In this document: piece after piece, positions 2,092 to 32,045 of the stretch | Layout: each line of letters starts with the position of its first letter | How positions within the stretch are numbered: position 1 is the stretch's first letter | DNA from: Candidatus Nanoarchaeia archaeon | Lineage (GTDB): Archaea > Nanobdellota > Nanobdellia > SCGC-AAA011-G17 > JAFCDX01 | Assembly (NCBI GenBank): GCA_041651575.1 | Contig: JBAZJB010000001.1 | Location: 639,286 to 703,285 of the forward strand | Reading direction: 5' to 3' | Length of the DNA: 64,000 nt | The notes under the pieces: model-generated | Told to the model about the DNA's origin: nothing | What the model saw: only the letters and a program-made list of their open reading frames with translations | Databases searched by the model: none | Program-made: the position numbers and the translations under genes

Positions 2092-4302
2092 ATGACAGAA
2101 TTAATACTAGCAGAAAAGCCAGATGCAGCTTCAAAAATAGCAGAAGCTTTGTCAGATGGAAAACCAGAAAAACATATTTATAAAAAAGTTCCTTATTATG
2201 AAATTACTCACAAAAAGAAAAAAATATTTGTTTGTTCTGCAGTAGGTCATTTGTTTGGATTATATGAAAAAGACAAAAAAGCTTGGACTTATCCAGTATT
2301 TAGTTATGAATGGGTCCCAATATACAAATCTTCTAAATTCGCAGCATTTACAAAACCTTATCTTGATTTATTAAAAAAATTAGGAAAAGAAGCAGATACT
2401 TTTGTAAATATGTGTGATGTAGATACCGAAGGAGAAGTTATTTTTAAAAATGTTAATAGATTTATTTTTGAAAAAGATGATGCTAAAAGAGCTTATTTCT
2501 CAACTTTAACAAAACAAGATTTAGTAAAAGCATATGAAGAAGCAAAACCACATCTAGATTTTAATTTAGCAGAAGCAGGAGAAGCAAGACATTGTTTAGA
2601 TTGGTTATATGGTATTAATTTATCAAGAGCATTAACACTTTCTATAAAAAATGCAACCAAATCTTTTAAAATTATGAGTTCTGGTAGAGTTCAAGGTCCT
2701 GCATTGTATTTATTATATCAAAGAGAACTAGAAATTAAAAAATTCAAGCCAGAACCTTATTGGGAAGTATCTCTTTGTGGTAAATTAAAAACTACTTTAA
2801 TAGAAGCCTTCCATAAAAAAGGAATTTTCAAAAATAAGAAAGATGCAGAAGAAATAATTAAAAAAACTAAAGGAAAAGAAGCATTTATTTCAAGTATAAC
2901 TAAAAGAGAAATTAAACAAGAACCATTATTACCTTTTGACTTGACAAGTTTACAATTAGAAGCGTATAAAACTCTTGGTTTAAGTCCAAAAACAACTTTA
3001 GAAATTGCCCAAAATCTTTATACAGGTTCTTATATTTCTTATCCTAGAACTTCTTCACAAAAATTACCAAAATCAATTGGTTATGAAGAAATTTTAAAGA
3101 ATTTAAAGAAAAGATTTCCAACAGAAGTCAATTTCTTATTAGCTAAAAAAGAATTAAAACCTACAGAAGGTAAAAAAGATGATCCAGCACACCCAGCAAT
3201 ATTTCCAACAGGAGAATTGCCTGGAAAATTAGATCCAAGAGCTGAAAATGTATATGAATTGATTGTAAGAAGATTTTTTGTTTGTTTTGGAGATCCTGCT
3301 ATAAGAGAATCAGTAACTTATGAAATAAATTGCAATGATGAATTATTTAGTTTATCTGGAACAACTACTAAAGTAAAAGGATGGCATGAATTATATGGAA
3401 AATTTGTTAAATTAAAAGAAGAAGAATTGCCTTTAGCTAAAGAAAAAGATGAAATTAAAACTCCTAAGACAAAAATCTATGATAAAGAAACTACCCCCCC
3501 TAATAGATACTCAGAAGCATCTTTAATTAAAGAATTAGAAAAAAGAAATCTAGGAACTAAGGCTACAAGAGCAGAAATTATCTCTACTTTATATGATAGA
3601 AATTATGCTAAAGAAAAATCCATTGAAGTTACTAATTTAGGAATGAAAACAGTAGAAACTCTTGAAAAATATTGTCCTGAAATATTAGATGAGAATTTAA
3701 CAAGACAATTTGAAGAGGAAATGGAAGAAATTCGTGAAGGAAAGATAAAAAAAGAAAAAGTTCTTGATGGAGCTAAAAAAGCTTTAACTAAAATATTAGA
3801 TCATTTCAAGGAAAATGAATTAAAAATTGGAAAATTACTTGCAGAAGCAAATATAGAAACAAGAATAGAAGAATCTACCTTAGGTCCTTGTCATGTATGT
3901 AAAAAAGGAAATTTAGAATTAAGAAAAGGTAAATTTGGTAATTTTGTTGCTTGTAATCAATATCCTGATTGTAAAACTACATTCTCTTTACCTTCTGGAT
4001 TTATTAAACCAGCAAAACAAACTTGTGTTAAATGTGGATTCCCAATGGTTATGATAATTAAAAAAGCTAAAAGACCTCAGATAATGTGCATTAATCCTGA
4101 ATGTGAAACAAGACAGGCAGACAAAGAAACAGAAAAGATAGTAAAAGATTATGAATCTGGAAAATTAAAAAAAGAATGTCCTAATTGTAAATCTCCATTA
4201 ATAGTTAGAAAAGGATTTTATGGTTATTTCTTGGCTTGTCCAAAATATCCTAAATGCAAGCATGCAGAATCCTTAATTGTTAAAATAAAAGAAGACAAAT
4301 AA
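2092..4302 (+). CDS. topA: type IA DNA topoisomerase (Topo I/III) with C-terminal zinc ribbons
   Basis: TOPRIM start LILAEKPDAA, active-site region YISYPRTSSQKL, and several C-terminal CxxC...CxxC zinc ribbons (CHVCKKG, CNQYPDC, CVKCGF, CPNCKS, CPKYPKC). Confidence 0.9.
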   Translation: MTELILAEKPDAASKIAEALSDGKPEKHIYKKVPYYEITHKKKKIFVCSAVGHLFGLYEKDKKAWTYPVFSYEWVPIYKSSKFAAFTKPYLDLLKKLGKEADTFVNMCDVDTEGEVIFKNVNRFIFEKDDAKRAYFSTLTKQDLVKAYEEAKPHLDFNLAEAGEARHCLDWLYGINLSRALTLSIKNATKSFKIMSSGRVQGPALYLLYQRELEIKKFKPEPYWEVSLCGKLKTTLIEAFHKKGIFKNKKDAEEIIKKTKGKEAFISSITKREIKQEPLLPFDLTSLQLEAYKTLGLSPKTTLEIAQNLYTGSYISYPRTSSQKLPKSIGYEEILKNLKKRFPTEVNFLLAKKELKPTEGKKDDPAHPAIFPTGELPGKLDPRAENVYELIVRRFFVCFGDPAIRESVTYEINCNDELFSLSGTTTKVKGWHELYGKFVKLKEEELPLAKEKDEIKTPKTKIYDKETTPPNRYSEASLIKELEKRNLGTKATRAEIISTLYDRNYAKEKSIEVTNLGMKTVETLEKYCPEILDENLTRQFEEEMEEIREGKIKKEKVLDGAKKALTKILDHFKENELKIGKLLAEANIETRIEESTLGPCHVCKKGNLELRKGKFGNFVACNQYPDCKTTFSLPSGFIKPAKQTCVKCGFPMVMIIKKAKRPQIMCINPECETRQADKETEKIVKDYESGKLKKECPNCKSPLIVRKGFYGYFLACPKYPKCKHAESLIVKIKEDK

Positions 4303-19757: not shown

Positions 19758-20494
19758 CTTTTGATGATGAAACAAAACAGAGAATCTTTCAACAGGCTAT
19801 TGATATTTTTGTAATCCCTGAAATAGAAAGGAGAAAAAAGATAAATAAATTACCTTCAGATTTTAAATTAGATAAAATCCAAATTATATTTTCTTCCAAG
19901 AGTGGAAGAAATTATGTAAGACTAAATAAGGAAGTTGATGTAATTATTAAATGCAAGGTAAATAAGCCTATCAAAAAAGGGGATATAGTTTATGAGAACG
20001 ATATAGATCAAATTGAGTCAGTTGAACTAACAAAAGGAGATTTAAATTATGGGCATATTACTTTATTAGCTTTTAAGGGGAATTGGATAGTTTCATTTAA
20101 TTTTATTTATAATAAAGAAGAAATTAAGAAGCATATTGAAGCATCTAAAGAGTTCTATGAAAGTGCAAAAGATAATTTAGAAAAGAAAAGATTAAGACCT
20201 TTTTTTGAGAATGCTTTTGCTTGTGCTGAATTATTTACTAAAAGTGTATTATTATCTTTGCCAAATAAAAAGTTCTTTGAAGGAAAAGACCATCGAAAAA
20301 AAAAGGAGTTTCTTAAAAATTGGGCAAATTTAGGAAATGTTAAAATTGAGTTTAGCACGACCTTGTCTAAACTATACTCTCTGAGAAGTTCAGCGAGGTA
20401 TCTTTCTTCTGATAACTACAAAAAAGAAAATGCTAAAGGAATACTTTCAATATTAGATGAGATGATTAAATCTTCGGAGGACCTAACAAAATGA
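19754..20494 (+). CDS. protein with C-terminal classical HEPN-like domain, embedded between hsdS and hsdR
   Basis: AFACAELFTKSVLL...GKDHRKKKEFL...LSKLYSLRSSARYLSSD follows the HEPN helical pattern (KavLl..H..l...L..lR..a.Y). The N-terminal ~120 aa are unassigned. ATGA overlaps on both sides. Confidence 0.45.
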   Translation: MTFDDETKQRIFQQAIDIFVIPEIERRKKINKLPSDFKLDKIQIIFSSKSGRNYVRLNKEVDVIIKCKVNKPIKKGDIVYENDIDQIESVELTKGDLNYGHITLLAFKGNWIVSFNFIYNKEEIKKHIEASKEFYESAKDNLEKKRLRPFFENAFACAELFTKSVLLSLPNKKFFEGKDHRKKKEFLKNWANLGNVKIEFSTTLSKLYSLRSSARYLSSDNYKKENAKGILSILDEMIKSSEDLTK

Positions 20495-23400
20495 CACAAC
20501 AAAATGAAAAGAAACTGGTAGAGAATTATATGATTGATAAGTTTGTTAATCAGAATAAATGGACTTACATTCCTGGAGGCAAACTTGAAAGAGAAAGCAA
20601 TGAAGAGCCTCTTTTAATTAAGAATCTTGTTTCTGCTATAAAGAAGATAAATGATACTAATTTATCTGAAGAAGATATTCAAGAAGTTTTGAAACAACTT
20701 AGATTAAGAGGCGTTGGGGTTGATGATTCTAAAAAGATTTTAGGATTCTTTAAGTTTGGAGTTTCAGTAAAACTCTCTAAGACTAAAGAGCTTGTTAGAG
20801 TCAAGTTATTTGATTATGATCATGTTGATAACAACGAGTTTATTGTAACTAATCAAATTCATTATGAATCTTCAGCTGGGGAAATTATTCCAGACATTGT
20901 TTTGTATGTTAATGGTATACCTTTAGTTATAATCGAATGTAAAGATATGACTTCTTCGTCTACAAGTTGGAAAGATGCTTATAATGATATTGTTGGAATT
21001 TATAGAAATAAGGTTAGAGAACCCTTCAAGTATTTTCAAATTGGAGTTGCAGCAGAACAAAAAGTAAAATATTTTCCAATAGTTTCGTGGGCTGAGGATA
21101 TTAAAGTTTGTGAGTGGAGAGATGAAAATAGAATAGAATTAGGAACAGATAGTTCTATGACTGGAATATTTGAGATGCTAACTAAAGAAGGCTTATTAAA
21201 TCTTATTAGAGATTTCATTTTTGTAAGAGAAGAGGGGGGAGAGAAAACAAAAGTAATTACAAGATATATGCAATATAGGGCAGTTAATAAAATCGTGGAT
21301 AGGGTTAAAACCAACATAGAAGGAAAAGAAAAAAAGAACAAAGGTTTAGTTTGGCATTGGCAAGGATCAGGAAAAACATTGACAATGGCTTTTGCAGCGC
21401 ACAAATTGTATTATCTTAAAGAATTAGAAAATCCAACCCTCTTTTTTATTTTAGATAGAACCGAACTTGAAGAACAGATGTATAATGAATTAAATGCTTT
21501 AGAGATGCCAAAAGTAGAGTCTATAGGATCAATTCAAGAATTAAAAAGAATATTAGAATATGATGAAGGAAAAGGTAAAAGAGGATTATTTACAATACTT
21601 ATCCATAAGTTTAGACCTGGAGACTTTGAAGATTTAAGAAAAGAATTAGAAAATAAGGATGTAGATAAACAAACCTTTTTGACAAGAAAAAATGTTATCG
21701 CTTTTATTGATGAAAGTCATAGATCTCAATATGGTCTACTTGCTTCTCAGATGAAAGCACTTTTAAAAAATGCTTTCTTTTTTGCATTTACTGGAACACC
21801 AATAAACAAAAAAGATAATAAAAATACATATCTTGAATTTGCTTATCCCCCCACCGAATTATATCTTGATAAATATTTTATTAAAGATGCCATTAGTGAT
21901 GGATTTACTTTAAAAATAGCTTATCAACCAAGACTTGAAAAAGAAGTTCATCTAAAAACAGACCAACTTACAATTTTGTTAGAAGCTGAAGATGTAGAAC
22001 TACCAGATGAAAAAAGAAAAGAATTTCAAGAAAGAGTAAAGAAAAATATTACAATACAAAAAGCTTATTATAAAAATAGGGAAAGAATAAAGAGGATTAG
22101 CGAAGATATAACAAAACACTTCAAAGAAAATCTCGATGGAAGATTTAAAGCGATGATAGTTGCAGTTGATAGAGAAGCTTGCGTTCATTATAAAGAAGAA
22201 TTAGACAAATTATTGCCGGGATATTCAGAAATTGTAATGACTTTTACCTCTGATGAGAGATCTAAAGATATTCAAGAATATCTGAATAAACTTCATGAAA
22301 GATTCCCAAATAAAGAACTTTCTGAAATAATGAAAGAAATTACTGGAAAATTCAAAGAAGAAGAGAATCCAAAAATACTAATTGTTACAGATATGTTACT
22401 TACTGGTTTTGATGCTCCTATTTTGCAAACAATGTATTTAGATAAACCCCTAAGAGAACATAGGTTATTACAAGCAATAGCAAGAACTAATCGTCCATTT
22501 AAAAATGTTAAAGAAGCAGGTTTAATTGTAGATTATTTAGGAATATTAAAAGAATTTAAGAAAGCTTTTGAAATTTATACAAAAGAGGATATCAAAGGAG
22601 CTCTTTATGATCTGAATGAAATTAAGAAAGAGTTTGAAGATTTACTTAAAGAAACTTTAGATTTATTTAAAGATTATCCTGAAAGAAAATTGGATAGCAG
22701 GGTATATTTATTGGAAATAGTGAGAAGTTTATTAGCTGATTCTCTTAAATTAAGGAAATTTATAGATAATATTAAAGAGTTAAGAAAAAAGTTTGAACTT
22801 CTTGGATCAGATGAATCCAAAGTAATTTATTATAAAGAATTGATTTGGCTTGAGGCAATATATGAAACCTATAAAAAAGAAGTATATCAAGAGACAGAAG
22901 ATGAAACTGATACTTATTTAAGAAAATATTTTGCTAAAACAATTAGATTTATTCACAAAAGCACAGAAATTGAGAATCTTAAAGAAAACTTACCTGTTAT
23001 AGATTTTGATGAGAATTATATTAAAAAATTAGAAGAAAAATATAAAACTAAAGAAGAAAGAGCCGCAAACATTGTATTTACATTAAATAGGTATATACTT
23101 GTGGATAGAGATGACAAAAAACTTTATGAAACTTTAATTGATAAAGTACAAAGATTATTTGATTCTTGGAGAACTAAAACAAAAGATTTTGAAACAATTT
23201 ATAAGGAAGGAATAAAAATCATTCAAGAAAGAAATAAACTTCTTCAAAGGAAGAAAGATCTTAAATTAAGTAATTTTGAATTTTCATCATTAATCCTTTT
23301 AGAAAAAAAGATAGGGGAAGAAAAAGTTCTTATAGAAGATATTAAAGAATTAGCAAAAGAGCTTTTCAGTGAGAAATATATATTCACAAATTGGACATCT

Positions 23401-23547
23401 CAAATTTTTACTAAAAAAGAAATTCAAAAAGTAATAAGGAAGTTATTACTAGGTTATATTAAAAAATATAATCTATCTATAGAAGATGTTAATGAGCTAA
23501 GCTTAAAAATATTTGAAAACTTGAAACAATATGAAAAAAGAGGTTAA
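20491..23547 (+). CDS. hsdR: type I restriction enzyme subunit HsdR
   Basis: N-terminal nuclease IPDIVLYVNGIPLVIIECK. Helicase motif I WHWQGSGKTLTMAF, motif II FIDESHRSQ, and QAIARTNRP. 1018 aa. Confidence 0.92.
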   Translation: MTQQNEKKLVENYMIDKFVNQNKWTYIPGGKLERESNEEPLLIKNLVSAIKKINDTNLSEEDIQEVLKQLRLRGVGVDDSKKILGFFKFGVSVKLSKTKELVRVKLFDYDHVDNNEFIVTNQIHYESSAGEIIPDIVLYVNGIPLVIIECKDMTSSSTSWKDAYNDIVGIYRNKVREPFKYFQIGVAAEQKVKYFPIVSWAEDIKVCEWRDENRIELGTDSSMTGIFEMLTKEGLLNLIRDFIFVREEGGEKTKVITRYMQYRAVNKIVDRVKTNIEGKEKKNKGLVWHWQGSGKTLTMAFAAHKLYYLKELENPTLFFILDRTELEEQMYNELNALEMPKVESIGSIQELKRILEYDEGKGKRGLFTILIHKFRPGDFEDLRKELENKDVDKQTFLTRKNVIAFIDESHRSQYGLLASQMKALLKNAFFFAFTGTPINKKDNKNTYLEFAYPPTELYLDKYFIKDAISDGFTLKIAYQPRLEKEVHLKTDQLTILLEAEDVELPDEKRKEFQERVKKNITIQKAYYKNRERIKRISEDITKHFKENLDGRFKAMIVAVDREACVHYKEELDKLLPGYSEIVMTFTSDERSKDIQEYLNKLHERFPNKELSEIMKEITGKFKEEENPKILIVTDMLLTGFDAPILQTMYLDKPLREHRLLQAIARTNRPFKNVKEAGLIVDYLGILKEFKKAFEIYTKEDIKGALYDLNEIKKEFEDLLKETLDLFKDYPERKLDSRVYLLEIVRSLLADSLKLRKFIDNIKELRKKFELLGSDESKVIYYKELIWLEAIYETYKKEVYQETEDETDTYLRKYFAKTIRFIHKSTEIENLKENLPVIDFDENYIKKLEEKYKTKEERAANIVFTLNRYILVDRDDKKLYETLIDKVQRLFDSWRTKTKDFETIYKEGIKIIQERNKLLQRKKDLKLSNFEFSSLILLEKKIGEEKVLIEDIKELAKELFSEKYIFTNWTSQIFTKKEIQKVIRKLLLGYIKKYNLSIEDVNELSLKIFENLKQYEKRG

Positions 23548-24106
23548 AATATTTAATTCAAGCATACAATATTGTATAGATTATCGTAGTGTGAAATATC
23601 CTAGATTAGAATTTAGAACAGGAATGTTAAATATCATACTTCCCTATGATTATGAAAATGAGCATAATCTATTAAATATACATAAAAATTGGATAATAAA
23701 AAAACAGAGAGCTATTAATTTTGCATTAAATAAATCAAAGGACAAACAATTAATAAATAGAAATTTAAATAACTTAAAAAAGATTGTTTTAGATTATTAT
23801 AACAAAAATTCCAATAATTTTAAAGCTAAAAAAATACAATTTAGACATATGAAATCAAAATGGGGGAGTTGTAGTTCAGATAAAGTTTTGACCTTTAATT
23901 CACTTTTAAGATTTTTACCTCTAAATCTTATTCAATATGTTGTTTATCATGAAATGTTACATCTCAAAGAAAAAAAACACAATAAAACCTTTTGGAATAT
24001 CATTTCTAAAAAGTTTACGAATTATCCATTAAAAGAAAAAGATTTATTTATATATTGGTTTTTAATACAAAAAAATTATAATTTAAATTTTTCTTTAAAA
24101 CTATAA
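23531..24106 (+). CDS. DUF45/YgjP-type zinc metallopeptidase-fold protein
   Basis: VVYHEMLHLKEKKHNKTFW (HExxH...H) and the N-terminal Y.l.rs.r pattern (CIDYRSVKYPRLEF). 17-nt overlap with the hsdR end. Confidence 0.72.
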   Translation: MKKEVKIFNSSIQYCIDYRSVKYPRLEFRTGMLNIILPYDYENEHNLLNIHKNWIIKKQRAINFALNKSKDKQLINRNLNNLKKIVLDYYNKNSNNFKAKKIQFRHMKSKWGSCSSDKVLTFNSLLRFLPLNLIQYVVYHEMLHLKEKKHNKTFWNIISKKFTNYPLKEKDLFIYWFLIQKNYNLNFSLKL

Positions 24107-24750
24107 TAATTATCCTTTCCCAAAATAATATGATCTAATAAAGGTATATTTAAAATTTCTCCTACTTCTTTTATTTTAACTGTAGTAAATATGTCTCCTT
24201 CACTAGGATTACAATCTCCAGAAGGATGATTATGGACTAAAATAATAGATTTAGCACTTTCTCTAATAGCTTCCTTAAAAATTTCTCTTGGATGTGCTAA
24301 AGAACTATCCAAAGTACCAATACTAACAACAGTTCTTTTAATAATCTTATTTTTAACATCTAAATACAAACAAATAAAATATTCTTTTTTCTCATTTCCA
24401 TATTCATCAACTAATAAATCATAAACATCCTTAGCACAACTAATACTATTTTTAAAACCTTCACGTTTTAATTTATTATATCTTTTAAAAAGTTCAATTA
24501 AGCTTAAAACCTTTAAAACTTTAACTTTATCACCTTTAAACTCTCTTAAAAGTTCATTAAAACCAAGATCTTCAAGTTTATTCAAGTTATATTTCTTTAA
24601 TAGTCTATTACTCATCTCTAAAGCACTTTCTCTATAACTTCCTTCCCAAAAGAGAATAGATAATAACTCTGCTTCATCTAAATTTTTAGCTCCTTTTCTA
24701 ATTAATTTAGAATCGGGTCTATTAAACGAAGGAAGATCAAAGATTCTCAT
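24076..24750 (-). CDS. radC: RadC-like JAB/MPN domain protein
   Basis: ILVHNHPSGDCNPSEGD (JAMM-like HxHPSG) and an N-terminal HhH-like region AELLSILF. Converges on the DUF45 gene with a 31-nt overlap. Confidence 0.85.
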   Translation of the reverse strand: MRIFDLPSFNRPDSKLIRKGAKNLDEAELLSILFWEGSYRESALEMSNRLLKKYNLNKLEDLGFNELLREFKGDKVKVLKVLSLIELFKRYNKLKREGFKNSISCAKDVYDLLVDEYGNEKKEYFICLYLDVKNKIIKRTVVSIGTLDSSLAHPREIFKEAIRESAKSIILVHNHPSGDCNPSEGDIFTTVKIKEVGEILNIPLLDHIILGKDNYYSFKEKFKL

Positions 24751-24837
24751 ATAAAAAACATAACTAAAACCTAATTATAAGCATTATTAGAAAGGAATAT
24801 ATAGAAAGTTTTATATAATAAGTAGTAATACAAGTCT

Positions 24838-24917
24838 TGTATCCCAGCTAGTGAGTTCGTCTGGTTAAAGTCCAGGGGGGCAATCTAGGTCCCGACTTGA
24901 AAAAGTCCACGGATACA
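24838..24917 (+). ncRNA. GC-rich structured-RNA candidate of unknown class
   Basis: An island much richer in G+C than the flanking AT-rich spacer. TTTTATATAA box at 24809-24818 lies about 25 nt upstream, and a T6 run at 24921-24926 follows directly. Closing stem GTATCC/GGATAC, GACTT-GAAA-AAGTC tetraloop hairpin, CTGG-TTAAAGT-CCAG hairpin. Strand is uncertain; it could instead be the 3' UTR of the minus-strand ORF 24918-25412. Confidence 0.3.
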
Positions 24918-25412
24918 TTATTTTTTAATAAGATATTTTTCTATGTCTTCTAAACTAATTTTAACATATCCTTTCACAATATTTTTTGTATCTCTTCTCA
25001 TTATATAAGCATATTTGTCTGCATTAGAACCTTCAGGTAATTTGACATAATTAATTAAAATATTTAATCCTAATTTATCTTTTAAAAATGATTTTAGGTT
25101 AGAAGTAATATCTTTTTCGTGACCTTGAAAATCTCTGCATATTTCTAATTTAATTTCTTCTTTTTTATTGAAAATATTAATTTCTTTAAAAATATAATAA
25201 ATAATTATACAATATAATCTTACTCTGAAAAATGCCTTTCCTTGTTTAGAAAGGTTATATCTGTATTTACCTTCTCCTTTTCTAGAATTTAAAATTTCTA
25301 TTAATTCTTTAGTAAATTTAAAACCTCTTATCAAATTATTTTTATCTGCTACAACAATAGAATAATTACTATTTAAAATATCCTCACCACTTACATCTAT
25401 TTCGAATATCAT
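24918..25412 (-). CDS. hypothetical protein
   Basis: 164-aa ORF with no recognisable motif. Confidence 0.45.
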   Translation of the reverse strand: MIFEIDVSGEDILNSNYSIVVADKNNLIRGFKFTKELIEILNSRKGEGKYRYNLSKQGKAFFRVRLYCIIIYYIFKEINIFNKKEEIKLEICRDFQGHEKDITSNLKSFLKDKLGLNILINYVKLPEGSNADKYAYIMRRDTKNIVKGYVKISLEDIEKYLIKK

Positions 25413-25450: not shown

Positions 25451-25493
25451 TTTTGTGAGACTTTTCCTAAAAGTTCCAAACGCTAACAAACTC
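25451..25493. repeat. direct repeat R2, copy a
   Basis: TTTTGTGAGACTTTTCCTAAAAGTTCCAAACGCTAACAAACTC. A 32-nt perfect core is shared with 26710-26753. Confidence 0.85.
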
Positions 25494-25497
25494 CATC

Positions 25498-25680
25498 TTA
25501 ATTAAAACTATTCAAATTATACTTAAAAACCAACCTATTAGCCAATTCCAAAGCACTTTCCTGCATAGAACCTCTTCCAAAAATAATAGCTAATAATTCA
25601 GCACTATCCAAAGAACTTGCTCCATTTTTCTCTAATTTATAGCCAGGACGATTAAACCAAGGTAATTCTTTAATGTGCAT
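25498..25680 (-). pseudogene. 5' fragment of a second radC paralogue (60 codons, no JAB domain)
   Basis: MHIKELPWFNRPGYKLEKNGASSLDSAELLAIIF... aligns to the RadC N-terminus MRIFDLPSFNRPDSKLIRKGAKNLDEAELLSILF. The ORF runs into repeat R2a and stops. Confidence 0.6.
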
Positions 25681-25788
25681 AAAAAACTCAATAAAAACCT
25701 AATTATAAGCATTATTAAAAAAGAATATACATTATTGTAACATTTAAGTTCCATATATAATAAAAAGCATCCAAAAAGGGTTTAAATG

Positions 25789-25869
25789 GGTGACTACAAA
25801 ATATGCAAAATGTAGACACCTGAGGAAAAATTTGTTAAAAATGTAGACACCCATAAAGTGTACGTCTAC
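25789..25869 (+). promoter_or_regulatory. cluster of GGTGACTAC / GTAGACACC inverted and direct repeats upstream of the MNT gene
   Basis: GGTGACTAC (25789-25797), 14-nt spacer, GTAGACACC (25812-25820). Second GTAGACACC at 25843-25851. GTGTACGTCTAC at 25858-25869. TATA (GATTTATATAG) follows, about 25-30 nt before the ATG at 25907. Confidence 0.45.
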
Positions 25870-25906
25870 AGAAAGATTTATATAGTATTGTGCCCGTACA
25901 TTATCT

Positions 25907-26371
25907 ATGGTATATACAGAAATTAAAAATAGAAATGGAAATCAGTACTTTTACAGAGTATTATCTATAAGAAATAAAGATAAAATTTCTAAAAAAAGAA
26001 TATATCTAGGTAAAAATCTAAACAAAGAAGAATTATTAACAAAAGAGTTACAAATTAACCAAGAATTTAATTTAATAAAGAAAGATATTACTATAGAAAA
26101 ATTAAAACCAAAAATAATAAAAATATTAAAAAAATATAAGGTAGTAAAAGCAGGAATCTTTGGTAGTTATGCTAGGGGAGAACAAAAAAGAAATAGCGAT
26201 ATTGATATAGCTGTTAAAATACAAGATAAAAAAATGAGTTTGATTGGTTTTGTCAATTTAAAATTAAAATTAGAAGGAGTTATTAAAAAGAAAGTAGATT
26301 TAGTAGAATATTCTGCTATTAAACCTTTAATAAAAGATAATATTTTAAAAGAGGAGGTTAGAATACTATGA
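25907..26371 (+). CDS. mntA: MNT-type nucleotidyltransferase (antitoxin-like) with ~55-aa N-terminal extension
   Basis: GIFGSYARGEQKRNSDIDIAV is the minimal NTase signature. The N-terminal extension is homologous to the N-terminus of the Fic ORF. Confidence 0.8.
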   Translation: MVYTEIKNRNGNQYFYRVLSIRNKDKISKKRIYLGKNLNKEELLTKELQINQEFNLIKKDITIEKLKPKIIKILKKYKVVKAGIFGSYARGEQKRNSDIDIAVKIQDKKMSLIGFVNLKLKLEGVIKKKVDLVEYSAIKPLIKDNILKEEVRIL

Positions 26372-26709
26372 AAAGAGATATGAATTTATTTATAGATGAT
26401 ATCTTAAAAAGTATAAAAAATATAGAAGAATTTACAAAAGGATTAACCAAAGAAAAATTTTCTAAAGATAATTTAAGGCAGAGTGCAACCATAAGAGAAT
26501 TAGAGATCATAGGAGAAGCATCCAAAAATATTTCTCCATCAATAAAAGAAAAATATTCAAATACACCTTGGAAAGATATAGCTGGATTTAGAGATATACT
26601 AAGTCACGCTTATTTTGGTGTAAATATAGATAGAGTATGGCGTATAATTAAAGAAGATTTACCTTTATTAGAAAAACAAATTAATAAAATAAAAGAAGAA
26701 TTAAATTAG
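26368..26709 (+). CDS. hepT: HepT-type HEPN (DUF86) toxin-like protein
   Basis: FRDILSHAYFGV carries the Rx4HxY motif. 4-nt overlap with the MNT gene. Confidence 0.85.
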   Translation: MKRDMNLFIDDILKSIKNIEEFTKGLTKEKFSKDNLRQSATIRELEIIGEASKNISPSIKEKYSNTPWKDIAGFRDILSHAYFGVNIDRVWRIIKEDLPLLEKQINKIKEELN

Positions 26710-26753
26710 TTTTTGAGACACTTTTCCTAAAAGTTCCAAACGCTAACAAACTC
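26710..26753. repeat. direct repeat R2, copy b
   Basis: TTTTTGAGACACTTTTCCTAAAAGTTCCAAACGCTAACAAACTC. Lies between the hepT stop and the map stop. Confidence 0.85.
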
Positions 26754-27636
26754 ACTTTGTAACAACAACAGGTTTTTCATCAACGATTATAGTATGTTCT
26801 GTCTGAGCAACCAAACCTTTTGACCTTTCAACCAATATATTATACTGCTGTATTATTCCTTCTCTTTCTAAATTATTCAAAGCCAAAGTTAATTTTAATA
26901 TATTAAATTTTTTACTCAAATCTCTTTTAGAAAAAGGTAATGTCTTATACTTTTCTTTAATATACTTTAAAACTTCTCTAGAACCAGAATCTCTAATAGG
27001 TTTATCAGGATCTTCAAGAGAATAAACTTCAGAATTTTTCCCATCCATAACAATTCCATCTCCATATGTTGTAAAAGGTTCACAAGCAAAGACCATTCCT
27101 TTTTCAAGAACAGTTTGATTGTTATTATCATAATTAGGAATGTTAATTCCTGTATGTATCTCATAAACACCAACACCATGACCAGCAAGATTCCTAATAG
27201 GGCTTAAATTATATTTTTTAATTGTAGTTTCAATAACTTTACCTATTTCACAGACTTTTGTTCCAGGAGTAAATAACTTAATAGCATTATCAAGAGCTTC
27301 TTCAGAGGCTTTAATCAAGTCTTTATTTTTAGTACTATTAACTTCTACAGTGCAGGCAGTATCTGTAACACAACCATTTACCTGTGCTCCAAGATCAATC
27401 TTGACAATATCTCCTTTTTTCAAGGTTCTTTCATCTTTTATTTTAGGAGAATCATGAGCTGCAATGAAATTAATAGAAACATCACAAGGAAAAGACAATT
27501 CTCCACCAAGACTTCTTATTTTAGCTTCAATTTTTTCAGCAATTTCTAAAACAGAAGCATTTTCTTTAATCAAACTTCTACCATATTCTCTTGCTTGTGA
27601 AGCAATTTTTCCTGCTTTTATGAAATCTTGATTCAT
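26752..27636 (-). CDS. map: methionine aminopeptidase, type 2 (archaeal)
   Basis: Pita-bread fold with the archaeal insertion. Motifs DIVKIDLGAQVNG, AGHGVG, FACEPF. 294 aa. Confidence 0.9.
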   Translation of the reverse strand: MNQDFIKAGKIASQAREYGRSLIKENASVLEIAEKIEAKIRSLGGELSFPCDVSINFIAAHDSPKIKDERTLKKGDIVKIDLGAQVNGCVTDTACTVEVNSTKNKDLIKASEEALDNAIKLFTPGTKVCEIGKVIETTIKKYNLSPIRNLAGHGVGVYEIHTGINIPNYDNNNQTVLEKGMVFACEPFTTYGDGIVMDGKNSEVYSLEDPDKPIRDSGSREVLKYIKEKYKTLPFSKRDLSKKFNILKLTLALNNLEREGIIQQYNILVERSKGLVAQTEHTIIVDEKPVVVTK

Positions 27637-27688
27637 ATAATAAAAACCGTGAAAGAATTAATAAAACTATCGCATAAAAGGATTATGG

Positions 27689-27727
27689 GGTGACCACAAA
27701 ATAGGAAGGTTTATAAATGTGGTCACC
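27689..27727 (+). promoter_or_regulatory. perfect 9-bp inverted repeat bracketing the fic TATA box (operator candidate)
   Basis: GGTGACCAC (27689-27697), 21-nt spacer, GTGGTCACC (27719-27727). The spacer contains GGTTTATAAAT. ATG at 27739. Confidence 0.55.
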
Positions 27728-27738
27728 TTATATAATAT

Positions 27739-28662
27739 ATGTTCATAGAAAAAAGAAAAGATGGAAAGAAAGTAAAATATTATCTTGTTTATTCTTATAG
27801 ACAAAAATCTCAAGTTAATAAAATTAGAAAGTATTTGGGGTTTAACCTTTCACATGAAGAATTACAAAAGAAAAAAGCTGTGGAAGAAAAACAGATAGAA
27901 AAAGAATTAGAAAAATTAAATACAAAAGTATTCAACTTTTCCTTATCAAAAAAACAATTAAGACAACTAAACGAATATGATAAACAAATAAAGATTCATC
28001 ATTTGAATTACAAACAATGGGAGAAATTTACAGAAGAATTTACTTATAACACAAATGCAATAGAAGGATCTTTAGTTTCCTTAAATGAAGTTCCTGAAAT
28101 TTTGTATAAACCAAAAGCAGAAGATAGTGAAGAAATTGAAACCAAAGGTGTGGCAAAGGCAGTAGAATTTATAAGAACCACTAAAGAAGATTTATCCTTA
28201 GAATTATTAAAAAAATTACATAAATTATGCTTTGAAGGATCAAAATCTTTTGCTGGAGAATTTAGAAATGTAGAAGTAGTTATTCAAAATGGAAGAGGAG
28301 AAATAATTCATGCAGGAGTTCCTGTTAAAAAACTTAAAAATGCCTTAAATGATTTAGTTAGTTGGTATAAACAAAATAAAAATAAATTTAAACCTCTTGT
28401 TTTGGCAGCAATAATTCATAATCAATTTGAACATATACACCCCTTCCAAGATGGGAATGGTAGAGTTGGAAGATTGTTGTTAAATTTTATATTATTAAAA
28501 AACAAATATCCTCCAATAAATATCTCTTTTGAAGATAGAAGGGAATATTACCTTACTTTAGAACAATATTCAAAACATAGAAGTTTAAGAGAAACAATGT
28601 CTTTTTTAATTAAACAATACAATAAAACTTTAAAACAGGTGTCCACAAAACCTAAAAAATAA
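27739..28662 (+). CDS. fic: Fic-domain protein with ~40-aa N-terminal extension
   Basis: HPFQDGNGRVGRLL matches the Fic motif HxFx(D/E)GNGRxxR. Confidence 0.9.
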   Translation: MFIEKRKDGKKVKYYLVYSYRQKSQVNKIRKYLGFNLSHEELQKKKAVEEKQIEKELEKLNTKVFNFSLSKKQLRQLNEYDKQIKIHHLNYKQWEKFTEEFTYNTNAIEGSLVSLNEVPEILYKPKAEDSEEIETKGVAKAVEFIRTTKEDLSLELLKKLHKLCFEGSKSFAGEFRNVEVVIQNGRGEIIHAGVPVKKLKNALNDLVSWYKQNKNKFKPLVLAAIIHNQFEHIHPFQDGNGRVGRLLLNFILLKNKYPPINISFEDRREYYLTLEQYSKHRSLRETMSFLIKQYNKTLKQVSTKPKK

Positions 28663-28725
28663 GAAAAAGTGGTCACCTCGAATCTTACCCTCTACATTTA
28701 TTTTTTTAATTGTAGTGGGTAAAAC
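28638..28725. repeat. direct repeat R3, copy a (includes last 8 fic codons, an inverted repeat and a hairpin)
   Basis: 88 nt, roughly 90 percent identical (hand alignment) to 29544-29631. Confidence 0.9.
28685..28722. terminator. 12-bp stem hairpin with T-rich loop downstream of fic
   Basis: TTACCCTCTACA / TGTAGTGGGTAA with one T-T mismatch and a 14-nt T-rich loop. Confidence 0.55.
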
Positions 28726-29002
28726 TCTCTAGAATAAAGATATCATCTAATTCTATTAGTTTTTTCACTTTTTGATCTTTTATATTTAATTTATATAATT
28801 TATTCTTGCCTAATTTTCTATTAAAGACAATTATTTTATTTTTAATTAAATCATTCCAAATTTTACGAAGTTTTATTTTTCTTACGTTTACATTTTTAGA
28901 TATATCTATAATTGAAAAATCTATTTCTCTTTCTGTCAACAAGTAATCCAATACTCTATTTACTGGATAGTTTCCCATAAAATCAATAAATATTGATGGC
29001 AT
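28706..29002 (-). CDS. small winged-helix-like protein
   Basis: 98-aa ORF. The segment NRVLDYLLTEREIDFSIIDISKNVNVRKIKLRKIWNDLIKNKIIV looks HTH-like. Weak call. Confidence 0.35.
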   Translation of the reverse strand: MPSIFIDFMGNYPVNRVLDYLLTEREIDFSIIDISKNVNVRKIKLRKIWNDLIKNKIIVFNRKLGKNKLYKLNIKDQKVKKLIELDDIFILESFTHYN

Positions 29003-29011
29003 TTTTCCTCC

Positions 29012-29263
29012 TTAATCTTTATAAAATTTCTTTCTAGGACCTACTTTAAGAACAATAAGTCTTTTCTCTTTAAAGTCAACATCTATTTCTGCTCTATATT
29101 TTCCAATCTTCAGCTTAAATCCCCTAATTTCAATTAAAGGTTCTAAATATCTAAAAGGCTCTTCTTTGCAATCTTGTATTTTATTCCAGATTCTTTCTTT
29201 TATTTGTCTATCTAACTTATTCAGTTCTTCTAAAGCCCTCTTTTCAAATATTACAGTATACAT
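29012..29263 (-). CDS. relE: RelE/ParE-superfamily toxin
   Basis: 83 aa. MYTVIFEKRALEELNKLDRQIKERIWNKI...FKLKIGKYRAEIDVDFKEKRLIVLKVGPRKKFY is the typical archaeal RelE layout. Confidence 0.72.
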   Translation of the reverse strand: MYTVIFEKRALEELNKLDRQIKERIWNKIQDCKEEPFRYLEPLIEIRGFKLKIGKYRAEIDVDFKEKRLIVLKVGPRKKFYKD

Positions 29264-29500
29264 TTAGATACCTAAAATTTTCTTTGCTTCGTCTTCAGTA
29301 TAGAATTCTCCTTTTTTCACTCTTTCTCTGGCTTCTTTTATCTCTTGTATTGTTTTTTGACTTAATTTTGGTTGTTTTTCACAAGTTTTTATGATATAAA
29401 CTATCTTTCTAATTACTTCGTCATAACTTTCGTTTTTGTATTCTCTAAATCTGTCTAATTCTACTTTTGTTCCTTGATCTAGTTTGATTGTAGTTTGCAT
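29264..29500 (-). CDS. cognate antitoxin candidate
   Basis: 78-aa ORF abutting relE with no spacer. C-terminal EIKEARERVKKGEFYTEDEAKKILGI is typical of small antitoxins. Confidence 0.5.
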   Translation of the reverse strand: MQTTIKLDQGTKVELDRFREYKNESYDEVIRKIVYIIKTCEKQPKLSQKTIQEIKEARERVKKGEFYTEDEAKKILGI

Positions 29501-29543
29501 ATACTTAGGTATACCAAGGTATATTTAAATCTTTCTATTAAGG

Positions 29544-29631
29544 GGTGTCCACAAAACATAAAAAATAAGAAAAAGTGGTCATCTCGAATCTTACCCTTTA
29601 CATTTAGTTTTTTAATTTGTAAAGGGTAAAC
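29544..29631. repeat. direct repeat R3, copy b
   Basis: Retains a fic-tail-like frame (VSTKHKK*), the inverted repeat GGTGTCCAC...GTGGTCATC, and a perfect 12-bp hairpin. Lies between the antitoxin promoter and the polB stop. Confidence 0.9.
29591..29629. terminator. perfect 12-bp hairpin downstream of polB (minus strand)
   Basis: TTACCCTTTACA / TGTAAAGGGTAA. One C-G to T-A compensatory change relative to copy a. Confidence 0.55.
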
Positions 29632-29642
29632 ATTAATTTATT

Positions 29643-32045
29643 TTATTTGAAATCTTGTAAAGTAGATTGTTCTTGTATTAATATTTGTTCCTTTTTCACT
29701 CCAAATACTTCAAATATCTTTTCTACACAAGGAAGAACTTGGTTATTTATATAATAATCTGTATCATATTCTTTTTCTCTGCATTCAGATGGTATTTTAG
29801 ATCTGTCTCTTATCATTCCTTTTCCTTCTGTAACAATAAACCAGATAGGGCTTCCAATTGATATTTTCTTTCCTTGTTCCTGCATTTTTCTTGCAACAGC
29901 AACATGAGGACCTATTTGTTCATAATCTTCTAGATTTTTCTTTAATTGTGTTTGAATTATTAACTCTTTTAATAAAACTTCTTTGTCTTTTATTTTTTTA
30001 AGTATATTTTTTGTATATTCTAGTGCTTCTGTAGGATTTCCTTTTTCTAATATCAAAGTTAGAACTTGTTTTTGTGTTTCTCTTGCTATTTTACTCCAAT
30101 CTCTTCTAACAGTTTCAAATCCAGTTAATTTAATATTTCCACATTCATCAATCAAAGCATATTTTTTCTTTGCACCCTGCATTGTTGTTTTTTTAGAGAC
30201 AAAAATTCCTAAGGGATAAAAATCATCAAACTCAAGCTCCATTAAACTAGGTAATTCTCTATTAATTTCTTCTACAACAGCAAAAGCTTCATCTTTGGTT
30301 TTGTTTTGTAGTTCTACTGCAACAGAATCTGTATCAGAATATAAAACATTAAATCCTTCTTTCTTAAATTTAGTTATTGTTTCTTTTATATATTCTCTTG
30401 CCCAAGCAGTAATAGAAGAAGCACACTCTCTGCAATACCATCTTGCTCCGAAAAATCCCATATAACCATAACAGGAATTTGCTACTGTCTTTAATGCATA
30501 AGATCTTGCTTCTAGCACTGGGTTTGTCTCTTGTCTTATTAGTTCTTTTACTCTATTTCTTCTTAAAATCAAATCTTTAATAACAGATGGAATAAAAGCT
30601 TCTTTTTTATTGCTAAAGAAATAAGTTTTCATTGTTCCTTGTTCATTTATTTCAGGAGATTCATAACCTTCTGATTTATTTAACATAGAAGGACAGACAT
30701 TTTTAGAAACAATTATACTAGGATATAAACTCATGAAGTCAAATACAATTATATTTTTATAAAATCCAGGAACAGGTTCCATTACAGAAGCCCCTTGATA
30801 AGTGTACATTCTTCTATCATGAATATCTGCATGTCCTGGTTGATTTGGAATTAATTCATTTAAATCAAGAGCACATTTAATTAAATAATTTTCAACAAGT
30901 TTACCGTAGGACATTCTGCAGATATCAAATAGAGGTAATCCAATTAATTTTACTAATTCTTGTAAGTTAGGTAAGATTTTTTTATAAACATCATAAGTTA
31001 ATTTAGAATCATGCAAATTATATTCACAAATTTGTTTTATATCTTCTAAATCTTCCTTAGACCACATATCATCTAGTTTGTCCATTCCAATATCTAATTT
31101 TTTATCTTTCAATAATTCATAAGCAACATTATTCAAGCTGTAAGAATCAAATTTTAAAGAACCTGCCATTATTTTCTTGATAAACTGCATAATATCTAGA
31201 TGAATAATACCTTTTATTTTTGCAGCAGGATACATCCCACGAGAAATTTTAACTTGTGTTCCATCTAAACCCATATCTAAAGGAATTCCTAAGTCTCTTG
31301 CTCTTTGTACTAAGAAAGGAAAATCAAATCCATCAGAATTATAACCGATTATGCAGTCTGGCTTGTATTCATTTAAAATTTCCTTGAATCTCTCTAATAA
31401 ATCAGCTTCACTATTTACAAATTCTATATCTTCATGCTGATTGAATTTTTTCCAGGTAATAACTTTCTTAAAATTATCTCCATAACATGATAAAGAAATA
31501 ATTTCAGAGTCTTCTGTATTAAAGGAATAAACTTCTATATCAAATGCAAGGGCTTTTAGATTAACAATTTCATCTTGAGCTACTTCAGAAACTTTTCCTT
31601 CAACAATTACTCCAAATTCATTCTGTTTTAAATCGCCTTCAACTTCACAAAGAGTTAAAGGAGTTATTTTTCTATCTCTTAAATATTTTTTATAGAATTT
31701 TATATCATATTCTAATAATTTAGTAATTCCTAATTCCTTTAACATATCTTTTATTACAGGCAAGGCATCAGAACTATTAACAGAAACTTTAATTGTTTTT
31801 ATAGGATTGTCTAAATATAATTTATCTTCAATTTCTGCTTTGATAACATAACTATCTTCATGTTTAATTGCTTCAATTTTAGCTTTTAGTTTGTTAAAAT
31901 CCTCTTTTTCATTAGGTACTGCATAGAAATATGGCTTTAGAGAATGATCTAGTACGATTATTTTCCTATTATCTTCTGTTTTTCCAAATATCCTTATCCC
32001 AGATTTATAGTCTATATCTAAAGGATAGAACCTTATCTTAGCCAT
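29643..32045 (-). CDS. polB: family B DNA polymerase
   Basis: Exo I LAFDIEVYS. Motif A DFMSLYPSIIV. Motif C VLYSDTDSVAV. 800 aa with no intein-sized insertion. Confidence 0.95.
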   Translation of the reverse strand: MAKIRFYPLDIDYKSGIRIFGKTEDNRKIIVLDHSLKPYFYAVPNEKEDFNKLKAKIEAIKHEDSYVIKAEIEDKLYLDNPIKTIKVSVNSSDALPVIKDMLKELGITKLLEYDIKFYKKYLRDRKITPLTLCEVEGDLKQNEFGVIVEGKVSEVAQDEIVNLKALAFDIEVYSFNTEDSEIISLSCYGDNFKKVITWKKFNQHEDIEFVNSEADLLERFKEILNEYKPDCIIGYNSDGFDFPFLVQRARDLGIPLDMGLDGTQVKISRGMYPAAKIKGIIHLDIMQFIKKIMAGSLKFDSYSLNNVAYELLKDKKLDIGMDKLDDMWSKEDLEDIKQICEYNLHDSKLTYDVYKKILPNLQELVKLIGLPLFDICRMSYGKLVENYLIKCALDLNELIPNQPGHADIHDRRMYTYQGASVMEPVPGFYKNIIVFDFMSLYPSIIVSKNVCPSMLNKSEGYESPEINEQGTMKTYFFSNKKEAFIPSVIKDLILRRNRVKELIRQETNPVLEARSYALKTVANSCYGYMGFFGARWYCRECASSITAWAREYIKETITKFKKEGFNVLYSDTDSVAVELQNKTKDEAFAVVEEINRELPSLMELEFDDFYPLGIFVSKKTTMQGAKKKYALIDECGNIKLTGFETVRRDWSKIARETQKQVLTLILEKGNPTEALEYTKNILKKIKDKEVLLKELIIQTQLKKNLEDYEQIGPHVAVARKMQEQGKKISIGSPIWFIVTEGKGMIRDRSKIPSECREKEYDTDYYINNQVLPCVEKIFEVFGVKKEQILIQEQSTLQDFK

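Follow-up and report, generated by a model that had tools for sequence, protein, structure and literature searches.

Two genes on the plus strand of an archaeal DNA stretch, one encoding an MntA-like nucleotidyltransferase (MNT) and the other a Fic enzyme, share a homologous N-terminal domain (hereafter, the N-domain), which is probably a sequence-specific DNA-binding module that regulates the gene encoding it. The stretch analyzed here (hereafter, the window) encompasses 64,000 nucleotides of the Candidatus Nanoarchaeia archaeon assembly GCA_041651575.1 (contig JBAZJB010000001.1, positions 639,286 to 703,285 of the forward strand); its G+C content is 27%, and the nearest relatives of the encoded proteins come from metagenome-assembled genomes of Woesearchaeota, Pacearchaeota, and Nanoarchaeota. 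The N-domain is fused to unrelated enzymes across several archaeal lineages, and inverted repeats that bracket the TATA box upstream of these genes are conserved and change with the subtype of the N-domain.

The ungapped alignment of residues 3-43 of MNT with residues 2-42 of Fic includes 16 identical residues among 41, exactly as in the original prediction, which had been made from the DNA letters and their translations; in BLASTP, the core of the alignment (15 of 29 residues identical) has an E value of 9e-6. The similarity is also significant in a profile-profile comparison, where hhalign aligns 44 columns of 115 Fic and 105 MNT N-termini with 97.4% probability (E = 1.6e-11), so that, by these alignments, the two N-termini are homologous. 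Searched with phmmer against all six reading frames of the window, each N-terminus matches only its partner (E = 4e-5 and 1e-5; next best at least 0.036), and no further N-domain genes are detectable in the window or, besides the target genes themselves, in the flanks of about 100 homologous loci. The 120 best Fic homologs (64-74% identity, about 307 aa) all start with M[YF][ILV]EKRK.GK..KYYLV[HY]SYRE..KV.KIR.YLG, and the 120 best MNT homologs (about 156 aa) all start with M.[YF]TE[IV][RK]..N..KYYYRV.S.R.G.K[VI]SKKR.YLG; invariant or nearly so in both families are E4, R6, Y14, Y15, V17, S19, R21, K28, R30, Y32, L33, G34, and L37.

Both N-domains are basic, with 11 K/R against 4 D/E residues and a net charge of +7 in each. 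The AlphaFold2 (AF2) model of the Fic N-domain, built from a 107-sequence alignment, has a pLDDT of 94 and consists of strands at residues 2-8, 11-22, and 25-35 followed by a helix at 39-45; in the model of full-length MNT, strands 2-9, 12-23, and 26-36 lead into a 37-residue helix (40-76) that continues into the nucleotidyltransferase fold. The N-domain is accordingly modeled as a small, basic, independently folding unit of 42-45 residues with three antiparallel beta strands and a helix. It has no family match in Pfam (E <= 10), NCBIfam, or the PDB sequences, and its best Foldseek hits, with E values of 1.0 in PDB and 0.11 in BFVD, include no significant neighbor. The question raised earlier, whether this is an arm-type or AP2-like fold, receives a divided answer. 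The beta-beta-beta-alpha topology, with the three antiparallel strands packed against a C-terminal helix, is present in the AF2 model; significant similarity of sequence or structure is not found, given that the Pfam arm-type and AP2 models do not match and the HPI integrase arm domain 3jtz ranks 34th in Foldseek (E = 3.3, TM 0.36), although a 46-residue query gives such searches little power. We therefore do not assign the N-domain to either family. A resemblance to the N-termini of IS1634-type transposases is likewise unsupported, there being no transposases among the best 150 profile matches.

A profile search against 1.84e9 representative proteins retrieves 274 clusters at E <= 1e-3, including 115 at E <= 1e-10. 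The N-domain starts at residue 1 in almost all of these clusters, and the carriers are mostly DPANN archaea. According to Pfam scans, the fusion partners are MNT (10 clusters), at least two subfamilies of Fic, a class II aminoacyl-tRNA synthetase core similar to prolyl-tRNA synthetase (ProRS; 3 clusters plus fragments), phosphoenolpyruvate (PEP)-utilizing enzymes of about 540 aa (2 clusters plus fragments), HepT, and an S-adenosylmethionine (SAM)-dependent methyltransferase; RNA_pol_N, DALR, DsrE, and HisKA are single cases that may be artifacts of short metagenomic contigs. These fusions, together with the charge and the confidently modeled fold, bear out the earlier proposal of a portable basic module attached to unrelated enzymes. 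Fic proteins with the N-domain are encoded in Nanoarchaeia, Woesearchaeota, Aenigmatarchaeota, Hadarchaeota, and Methanosarcinales bins and in the cultured Methanolobus psychrotolerans YSF-03 (locus L010; 54% identity).

In the entire 64 kb, the motif GGTGWCYAC has 8 exact matches against 0.19 expected, a count reached in none of 100 shuffles. These matches, at 25789+, 25812-, 25843-, 27689+, 27719-, 28638+, 28669-, and 29544+, all lie within 25789-29552. Two of them form the fic promoter operator, the perfect inverted repeat GGTGACCAC-N21-GTGGTCACC that brackets the TATA box just as originally claimed; the ATG follows 11 nt past the right half, which implies a leaderless mRNA. This operator is conserved in several archaeal lineages: upstream of all 13 Fic-type genes (L001-L012 and L018), GGTG[AC]CCACAAAAT precedes the TATA box and TGTGG[TAG]CACC follows it, with the ATG 10-12 nt past the right half, and Fic-type half-sites are almost absent elsewhere in the 467 kb of the loci.

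The MNT gene has an operator of its own, with the ATG 7 nt past the right half. The core of this operator is identical in the closest MNT relative (L108), which is 71% identical in sequence and comes from another genomic context, and about 75 MNT loci contain a palindrome of the same architecture around TTTATAAA. The three variants of the MNT-type palindrome are TGTGTCTACA…TGTAGACATA, TACGTCTACA…TGTAGACGTA, and TACGTCCACA…TGTGCCCGTA, the right half in the 75 loci being TGTAGACATA or GTA. The original prediction counted three to four MNT half-sites between 25789 and 25869. The fourth of these, GTACGTCTAC, is indeed the left half of the MNT operator, the right half of which, GTGCCCGTAC, was overlooked; the other three are Fic-type. 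They have GGTG…CACC ends and align with the Fic-type sites, with a shorter spacer and no TATA box, and as judged from this alignment are a degenerate cluster of Fic-type sites upstream of MNT; GGTG sites are absent at this place in L108. The proposal that position 7 of the half-site (C for Fic, T for MNT) sets the specificity fails as well, because Fic-type sites often have T (GGTGACTAC, GTAGACACC) and MNT-type sites often have C (GTCCACA). In the aligned sites, the positions that discriminate the subtypes are the outer ones.

In 86 of the 90 distinct upstream regions, the TATA box lies between two half-sites specific to the subtype, with the ATG about 11 nt past the right half. The half-sites are located at roughly -50 to -42 and -20 to -12, and the distance from TATA to ATG is about 26 nt, implying leaderless mRNAs. 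Of the N-domain genes, 81% are preceded by an inverted repeat that matches at 8 or more of 9 positions, compared to 18% of 369 control open reading frames (ORFs) from the same DNA, so that the palindromes expected upstream of homologs are both conserved and enriched. The latter percentage also serves as a reminder that AT-rich DNA is rich in inverted repeats, and one might ask whether a 27% G+C genome encoding lysine-rich proteins could yield the similarity and the repeats by chance. This is next to inconceivable and, indeed, already refuted by the excess of motif matches in the window and the profile-profile E value, and by the conservation of a G+C-rich motif in genomes of differing composition.

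In the loci compared, the putative operator follows the subtype of the N-domain rather than the fused enzyme, as predicted for an autoregulatory DNA reader. The Fic-type domain is accompanied by GGTGACCAC and the MNT-type domain by TGTGTCTACA or TACGTCTACA, irrespective of the attached enzyme. Thus, MNT-type heads on the ProRS (L099) and HepT (L101) fusions come with TACGTC(T/C)ACA…TGTAGACGTA; the second Fic subfamily (L102), which has an MNT-type head, comes with GTACGGGCACA…TGTGCCCCCAT, twice; a 502-aa protein with a Fic-type head comes with GTAGTCACC sites; and divergent heads (L013-L017, including L016) have palindromes of their own. Two of these upstream regions contain tandem palindromic operators, a distal one without a TATA box and a proximal one around it (L099, 474-568, the ProRS-like fusion; L102, 1370-1500, the second Fic subfamily); the upstream region of MNT in the window similarly has distal sites, but these are Fic-type.

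Within the MNT family, the base preceding GTCTAC is T in 43 of 43 cases with R at residue 7, in strand 1, and C in 24 of 27 cases with K there, counts that are uncorrected for phylogeny; residue 9 shows the same base pattern. The Fic family agrees: R is invariant at the corresponding position, and the corresponding base is T.

Alternatively, the palindromes could be explained by a separate conventional transcription factor or a lineage-specific promoter element, with the N-domain involved in RNA or tRNA binding, oligomerization, or substrate recruitment. The partners (ProRS, the HepT RNase, MNT, and Fic) do handle nucleotides or RNA, the searches recovered no known DNA-binding fold, and there are extra Fic-type sites away from the starts of N-domain genes, namely, the cluster at 25789-25851 and two copies of a repeat, R3a and R3b, described below. 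We nevertheless regard this explanation as unlikely. The half-sites change along with the subtype of the N-domain, whatever the fused enzyme and whatever the host lineage; gene and operator occur as a unit in unrelated contexts, so that a trans-acting factor would need to travel along with them; and the N-domain is strongly basic.

The fic gene differs from the MNT-type genes in having a second palindrome, which in the window reads GGTGTCCAC-N22-GTGGTCACC; a homologous palindrome overlaps or adjoins the fic stop codon in 13 of 13 loci of this subfamily. The left half of this palindrome encodes the conserved C-terminal QVTTK (QVSTK in the window), and the right half falls in non-coding DNA that shows no other relationship from locus to locus. 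A role as a second promoter is rejected because the spacer holds the stop codon and, in all of the loci, is devoid of a TATA consensus. The MNT-HepT operons were inspected for a 3' palindrome as well, and none is present in the loci, the MNT-type genes having promoter palindromes only. The promoter and stop-codon palindromes of fic are about 950 bp apart and are found in unrelated neighborhoods (L001-L012, for example, L001 3900-3939, and the window). The same palindrome at both ends of fic suggests looping or a mobile unit.

In the window, the 3' palindrome is part of R3, a repeat with copies at 28638-28711 (R3a) and 29544-29617 (R3b) that are 95% identical over 74 nt and alignable over about 88 nt, comprising the palindrome and a stable hairpin. 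The R3a hairpin is a likely bidirectional terminator, and the differences between the two hairpins are compensatory. The fic-type repeat is found in both copies, as was originally noted, with one mismatch to GGTGWCYAC in the right arm of R3b (GATGACCAC, 29575-29583). On the minus strand, the R3b palindrome is located directly upstream of the TATA box TTTAAATATA (29520-29529) and the antitoxin ATG at 29500, in agreement with the position claimed relative to the relE operon. The three-gene relBE-type cassette between R3a and R3b is absent beside fic in the other loci, and the simplest history is that its insertion duplicated R3. Hence the idea that the repeats mark cassette borders is half right: R3 was duplicated with the inserted cassette, but its palindrome is fic's own conserved 3' site, because the presence of the palindrome at the fic stop codon in 13 of 13 loci makes R3a a conserved part of the fic unit. 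Given that R3b abuts the TFB recognition element (BRE) and TATA box of the cassette, cross-regulation of the relBE-type genes by Fic is possible. A further arrangement of such sites is seen in M. psychrotolerans YSF-03 (L010), where three Fic-type palindromes are present (2254-2288, 2951-2985, and 3905-3939), two of them bracketing an oppositely oriented SAM-dependent methyltransferase gene.

The gene neighborhoods of fic are not conserved across the loci. Synteny with MetAP or PolB was tested in the other loci and rejected. To judge from these shifting neighborhoods, the unit of fic plus palindromes is probably horizontally mobile, and the palindromes themselves might primarily be recombination or mobility sites (ends or attachment sites) of fic and the neighboring cassettes, with the N-domain binding the ends or sites instead of regulating transcription. 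The palindrome on both sides of fic in all 13 loci, the lack of conserved neighbors despite 64-74% protein identity across Woesearchaeota, Aenigmatarchaeota, Hadarchaeota, and Methanosarcinales bins, the duplication of R3 around the relBE-type cassette, and the Methanolobus methyltransferase gene between two palindromes are all compatible with such a role. However, no recombinase is encoded in or beside the unit, the MNT-type genes have palindromes at the promoter only, and, in about 86 of 90 genes, the exact bracketing of TATA at a fixed distance from the ATG speaks for promoter control. We find it quite improbable that mobility is the primary function of the palindromes, although mobility and regulatory roles can coexist.

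Returning to the regulatory interpretation, we strongly infer autoregulation by direct DNA binding, which could work as follows. The N-domain, joined by a helical linker to dimerizing enzymes, would be present in two copies that read two inverted half-sites of 9-10 bp with centers about 30 bp, that is, three helical turns, apart. One half-site would lie just upstream of BRE/TATA and the other between TATA and the start of the leaderless mRNA, so that occupation of both would hinder the assembly of TBP, TFB, and RNA polymerase, and each enzyme would repress its own gene. The Fic-type domain would read GGTGAC(C/T)AC, whereas the MNT-type domain would read T(G/A)TGTC(T/C)ACA with Arg at residue 7 and TACG(T/G)(C/G)C(T/C)ACA-like sites with Lys there; the predicted preferences are GGTGACCAC for the window Fic and TACGTCTAC/GTGCCCGTA for the window MNT. 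The TATA-less palindrome at the 3' end of fic may be an auxiliary operator acting via looping or as a roadblock.

Several observations weigh against this scheme. Two of the 90 genes (L064, L075) have no recognizable site, and the half-sites of two partners (L103, L105) are in direct, not inverted, orientation. The correlation between residue and base could reflect the common ancestry of two clades rather than contact; the Foldseek results allow no known DNA-binding fold to be assigned; and the ProRS and HepT fusions would also fit an RNA-binding role. Fragments from short contigs make up many of the 274 clusters, and some single-member fusions may be artifacts of assembly or gene calling. Finally, the support comes from sequence comparison and structure prediction, and the regulation could be either repression or activation.

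If autoregulation by the N-domain is true, it adds a very small new DNA-binding family to the sparse catalog of archaeal regulators, one for which the operators, the spacing, and candidate specificity residues can be read from the sequence. It would account for the autoregulation of MNT-HepT modules in DPANN archaea, link Fic AMPylases, toxin-antitoxin enzymes, and housekeeping enzymes (ProRS, PEP-utilizing) through one portable regulatory head, and open one of the few ways to study how transcription is controlled in DPANN lineages that are uncultured. The short, subtype-distinct half-sites and the cultured carrier M. psychrotolerans make the proposal testable. A broader notion, which we put forward as speculation, is that the N-domain represents a new class of archaeal DNA-binding domains that works as a plug-in "self-operator" kit: a head of about 45 residues and a TATA-bracketing palindrome would turn an enzyme into a one-component autoregulated system, possibly responsive to its substrate. 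In gene-poor DPANN archaea, such a kit could stand in for the dedicated transcription factors of toxins, antitoxins, and even ProRS and PEP-utilizing enzymes. Fic bound at its own 3' end and at the extra sites near MNT-HepT, relBE, and the Methanolobus methyltransferase gene might form loops or control a small Fic-centered regulon, in which the expression of neighboring toxin-antitoxin cassettes would be tied to AMPylation status.

The enzymes to which the N-domain is attached in the window retain the motifs of their families, the type VII HEPN-MNT (HepT/MntA) toxin-antitoxin pairs, in which MNT neutralizes HepT by (poly)adenylylation, and the class II Fic/Doc AMPylases, which have an intramolecular inhibitory helix. 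MNT matches Pfam Polbeta (5.7e-19) and NTP_transf_2 (2.5e-13; residues 69-153) and contains the MNT-fold motif GSx(n)RG…DxD as GSYARGE…DIDI in the translation, although its NCBIfam MntA_antitoxin score of 57.2 bits is slightly below the cut-off of 60. The start of HepT overlaps the MNT stop codon by 4 nt in the same orientation, the Rx4-6H motif is present as RDILSH, and HepT follows MNT in 79 of 83 MNT-matching loci. Canonical MNT/MntA antitoxins have been described as devoid of a DNA-binding domain (PMC7641770). In the MNT-HepT pair, the N-domain would supply the promoter binding that ordinary MNT antitoxins are without. The Fic protein has the active-site motif HxFx(D/E)GNGRxxR (HPFQDGNGRVGR in the translation) and, upstream of the Fic core, an inhibitory-type (S/T)xxxE(G/N) motif (TNAIEG within FTYNTNAIEGS) that is conserved in the homologs, the inhibition itself being a prediction. 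The positions of these and the surrounding features are listed in Table 1.

Table 1. Genes, N-domains, candidate operators, and repeats around the MNT and fic genes (positions are those of the window; ORF sizes in aa).
Feature	Positions	Strand	Basis or remark
RadC	24076-24750	-	
164-aa ORF	24918-25412	-	
RadC N-terminal fragment, 60 aa	25498-25680	-	UPF0758_N 1.6e-13
Distal Fic-type sites without TATA	25789-25851		GGTGACTAC (25789-97), N14, GTAGACACC (25812-20), N22, GTAGACACC (25843-51); motif scan
MNT operator (candidate)	25860-25899		GTACGTCTAC (25860-69), TATA TTTATATA (25877-84), GTGCCCGTAC (25890-99); coordinates; identical in L108
MNT (MntA-like nucleotidyltransferase) with N-domain	25907-26371	+	Pfam
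MNT N-domain coding part, aa 1-43, MNT-type, MVYTEIKNRN…KRIYLG	25907-26035	+	Homology to Fic N-terminus; AF2
HepT (HEPN RNase) toxin	26368-26709	+	Pfam HepT-like 1.8e-30
MetAP	26752-27636	-	
fic promoter operator (candidate), GGTGACCAC-N21-GTGGTCACC	27689-27727		Perfect repeat around TATA TTTATAAA (27710-27717)
fic, class II-like Fic	27739-28662	+	Pfam Fic 4.8e-22, residues 152-252
Fic N-domain coding part, aa 1-42, Fic-type, MFIEKRK…KYYLVYSYR…RKYLG	27739-27864	+	AF2, homology
fic 3' palindrome (in R3a), GGTGTCCAC-N22-GTGGTCACC	28638-28677		Over stop codon 28660-62; no TATA box
R3a hairpin, TTACCCTCTACA…TGTAGTGGGTAA	28685-28722		Minimum free energy (MFE) -16.1 (+), -20.7 (-); z -5.1, -7.2
Inserted three-gene relBE-type cassette	28706-29500	-	Pfam, weak NCBIfam HypR match; bracketed by R3a and R3b
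98-aa ORF, possible winged helix-turn-helix protein	28706-29002	-	
ParE/RelE toxin	29012-29263	-	Pfam
DUF7557 antitoxin	29264-29500	-	Pfam
R3b, palindrome GGTGTCCAC-N22-GTGGTCATC (29544-83) and hairpin (29591-29629)	29544-29629		Downstream of PolB
Family B DNA polymerase (PolB)	29643-32045	-	

Other features of this part of the window were observed in passing. The 5' end of radC and its promoter region are duplicated (24579-24801 and 25509-25729, with a spacing of about 929 nt), and the RadC fragment ORF left by this duplication lies immediately upstream of the MNT promoter in divergent orientation. A near-identical direct repeat of about 42 nt (…CTTTTCCTAAAAGTTCCAAACGCTAACAAACTC; 25452-25493 and 26713-26753) brackets the RadC fragment together with MNT-HepT, its second copy adjoining the MetAP stop codon, which suggests insertion or duplication of the MNT-HepT block, too, as a cassette. 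Farther upstream, at 20491-24106, a 1018-aa HsdR-like type I restriction helicase precedes and overlaps an ORF of 191 aa that contains the metal-hydrolase motif HEMLH, labels that were read from the translation. With the HsdR-like and hydrolase-like genes, RadC, MNT-HepT, Fic, and relBE together, the region looks like a defense and toxin-antitoxin island. A G+C-rich island of about 80 nt at 24838-24918 (+) has a closing stem GUAUCC/GGAUAC (MFE -27.9 kcal/mol, z -2.5), with TTTTATATAA about 20 nt upstream and ACA plus a T-run after it; it has no match in Rfam at the gathering score or at E <= 1 and is a candidate for an unannotated small RNA.

The principle of the proposed regulation is known, from DNA-binding antitoxins, enzymes that double as repressors, and DNA-binding Fic proteins. 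The N-domain family, the TATA-bracketing architecture, the range of partners, and the double palindrome of fic were not found in Pfam, NCBIfam, PDB, or the literature searched, where there is no description of the N-domain either. With AP2/ERF and the arm domains of Tn916 or lambda/HPI integrases, the N-domain shares the basic character and the predicted beta-beta-beta-alpha order within about 45 residues, but it has no significant match to them in sequence or structure. Bacterial Fic proteins with C-terminal winged-helix domains exist; the domain described here differs from those in being N-terminal, all-beta, and unrelated in sequence, with conserved sites at its own promoter and at the 3' end. 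For the Fic protein of Coxiella burnetii, (de)AMPylation is reported to be induced by DNA binding (PMC10628234). The likeness is one of a Fic AMPylase combined with a putative nucleic-acid-binding module, and in the archaeal proteins, too, DNA could gate catalysis.

Type II antitoxins autorepress their operons by binding promoter palindromes through N-terminal ribbon-helix-helix (RHH), AbrB/SpoVT, helix-turn-helix (HTH), or Phd/YefM domains. The MNT gene follows the same plan, with a small, putative DNA reader at the N-terminus, a palindromic operator over the core promoter, and the toxin gene directly downstream. The differences are the predicted fold, a three-stranded beta meander plus helix rather than RHH, AbrB, or HTH, and the occurrence of the N-domain also on toxin-type HepT, Fic, and housekeeping enzymes. 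Bifunctional enzyme-repressors, or "trigger enzymes," include BirA, PutA, and NadR, and E. coli AlaRS binds a palindrome at its own promoter. Here, too, an enzyme and its putative own repressor are combined in one polypeptide, and the ProRS-like fusion has two palindromic operators at its promoter; what sets the N-domain apart from these systems is that a single family of short domains is found on many unrelated enzymes and that an archaeal TATA/BRE promoter is bracketed on both sides.

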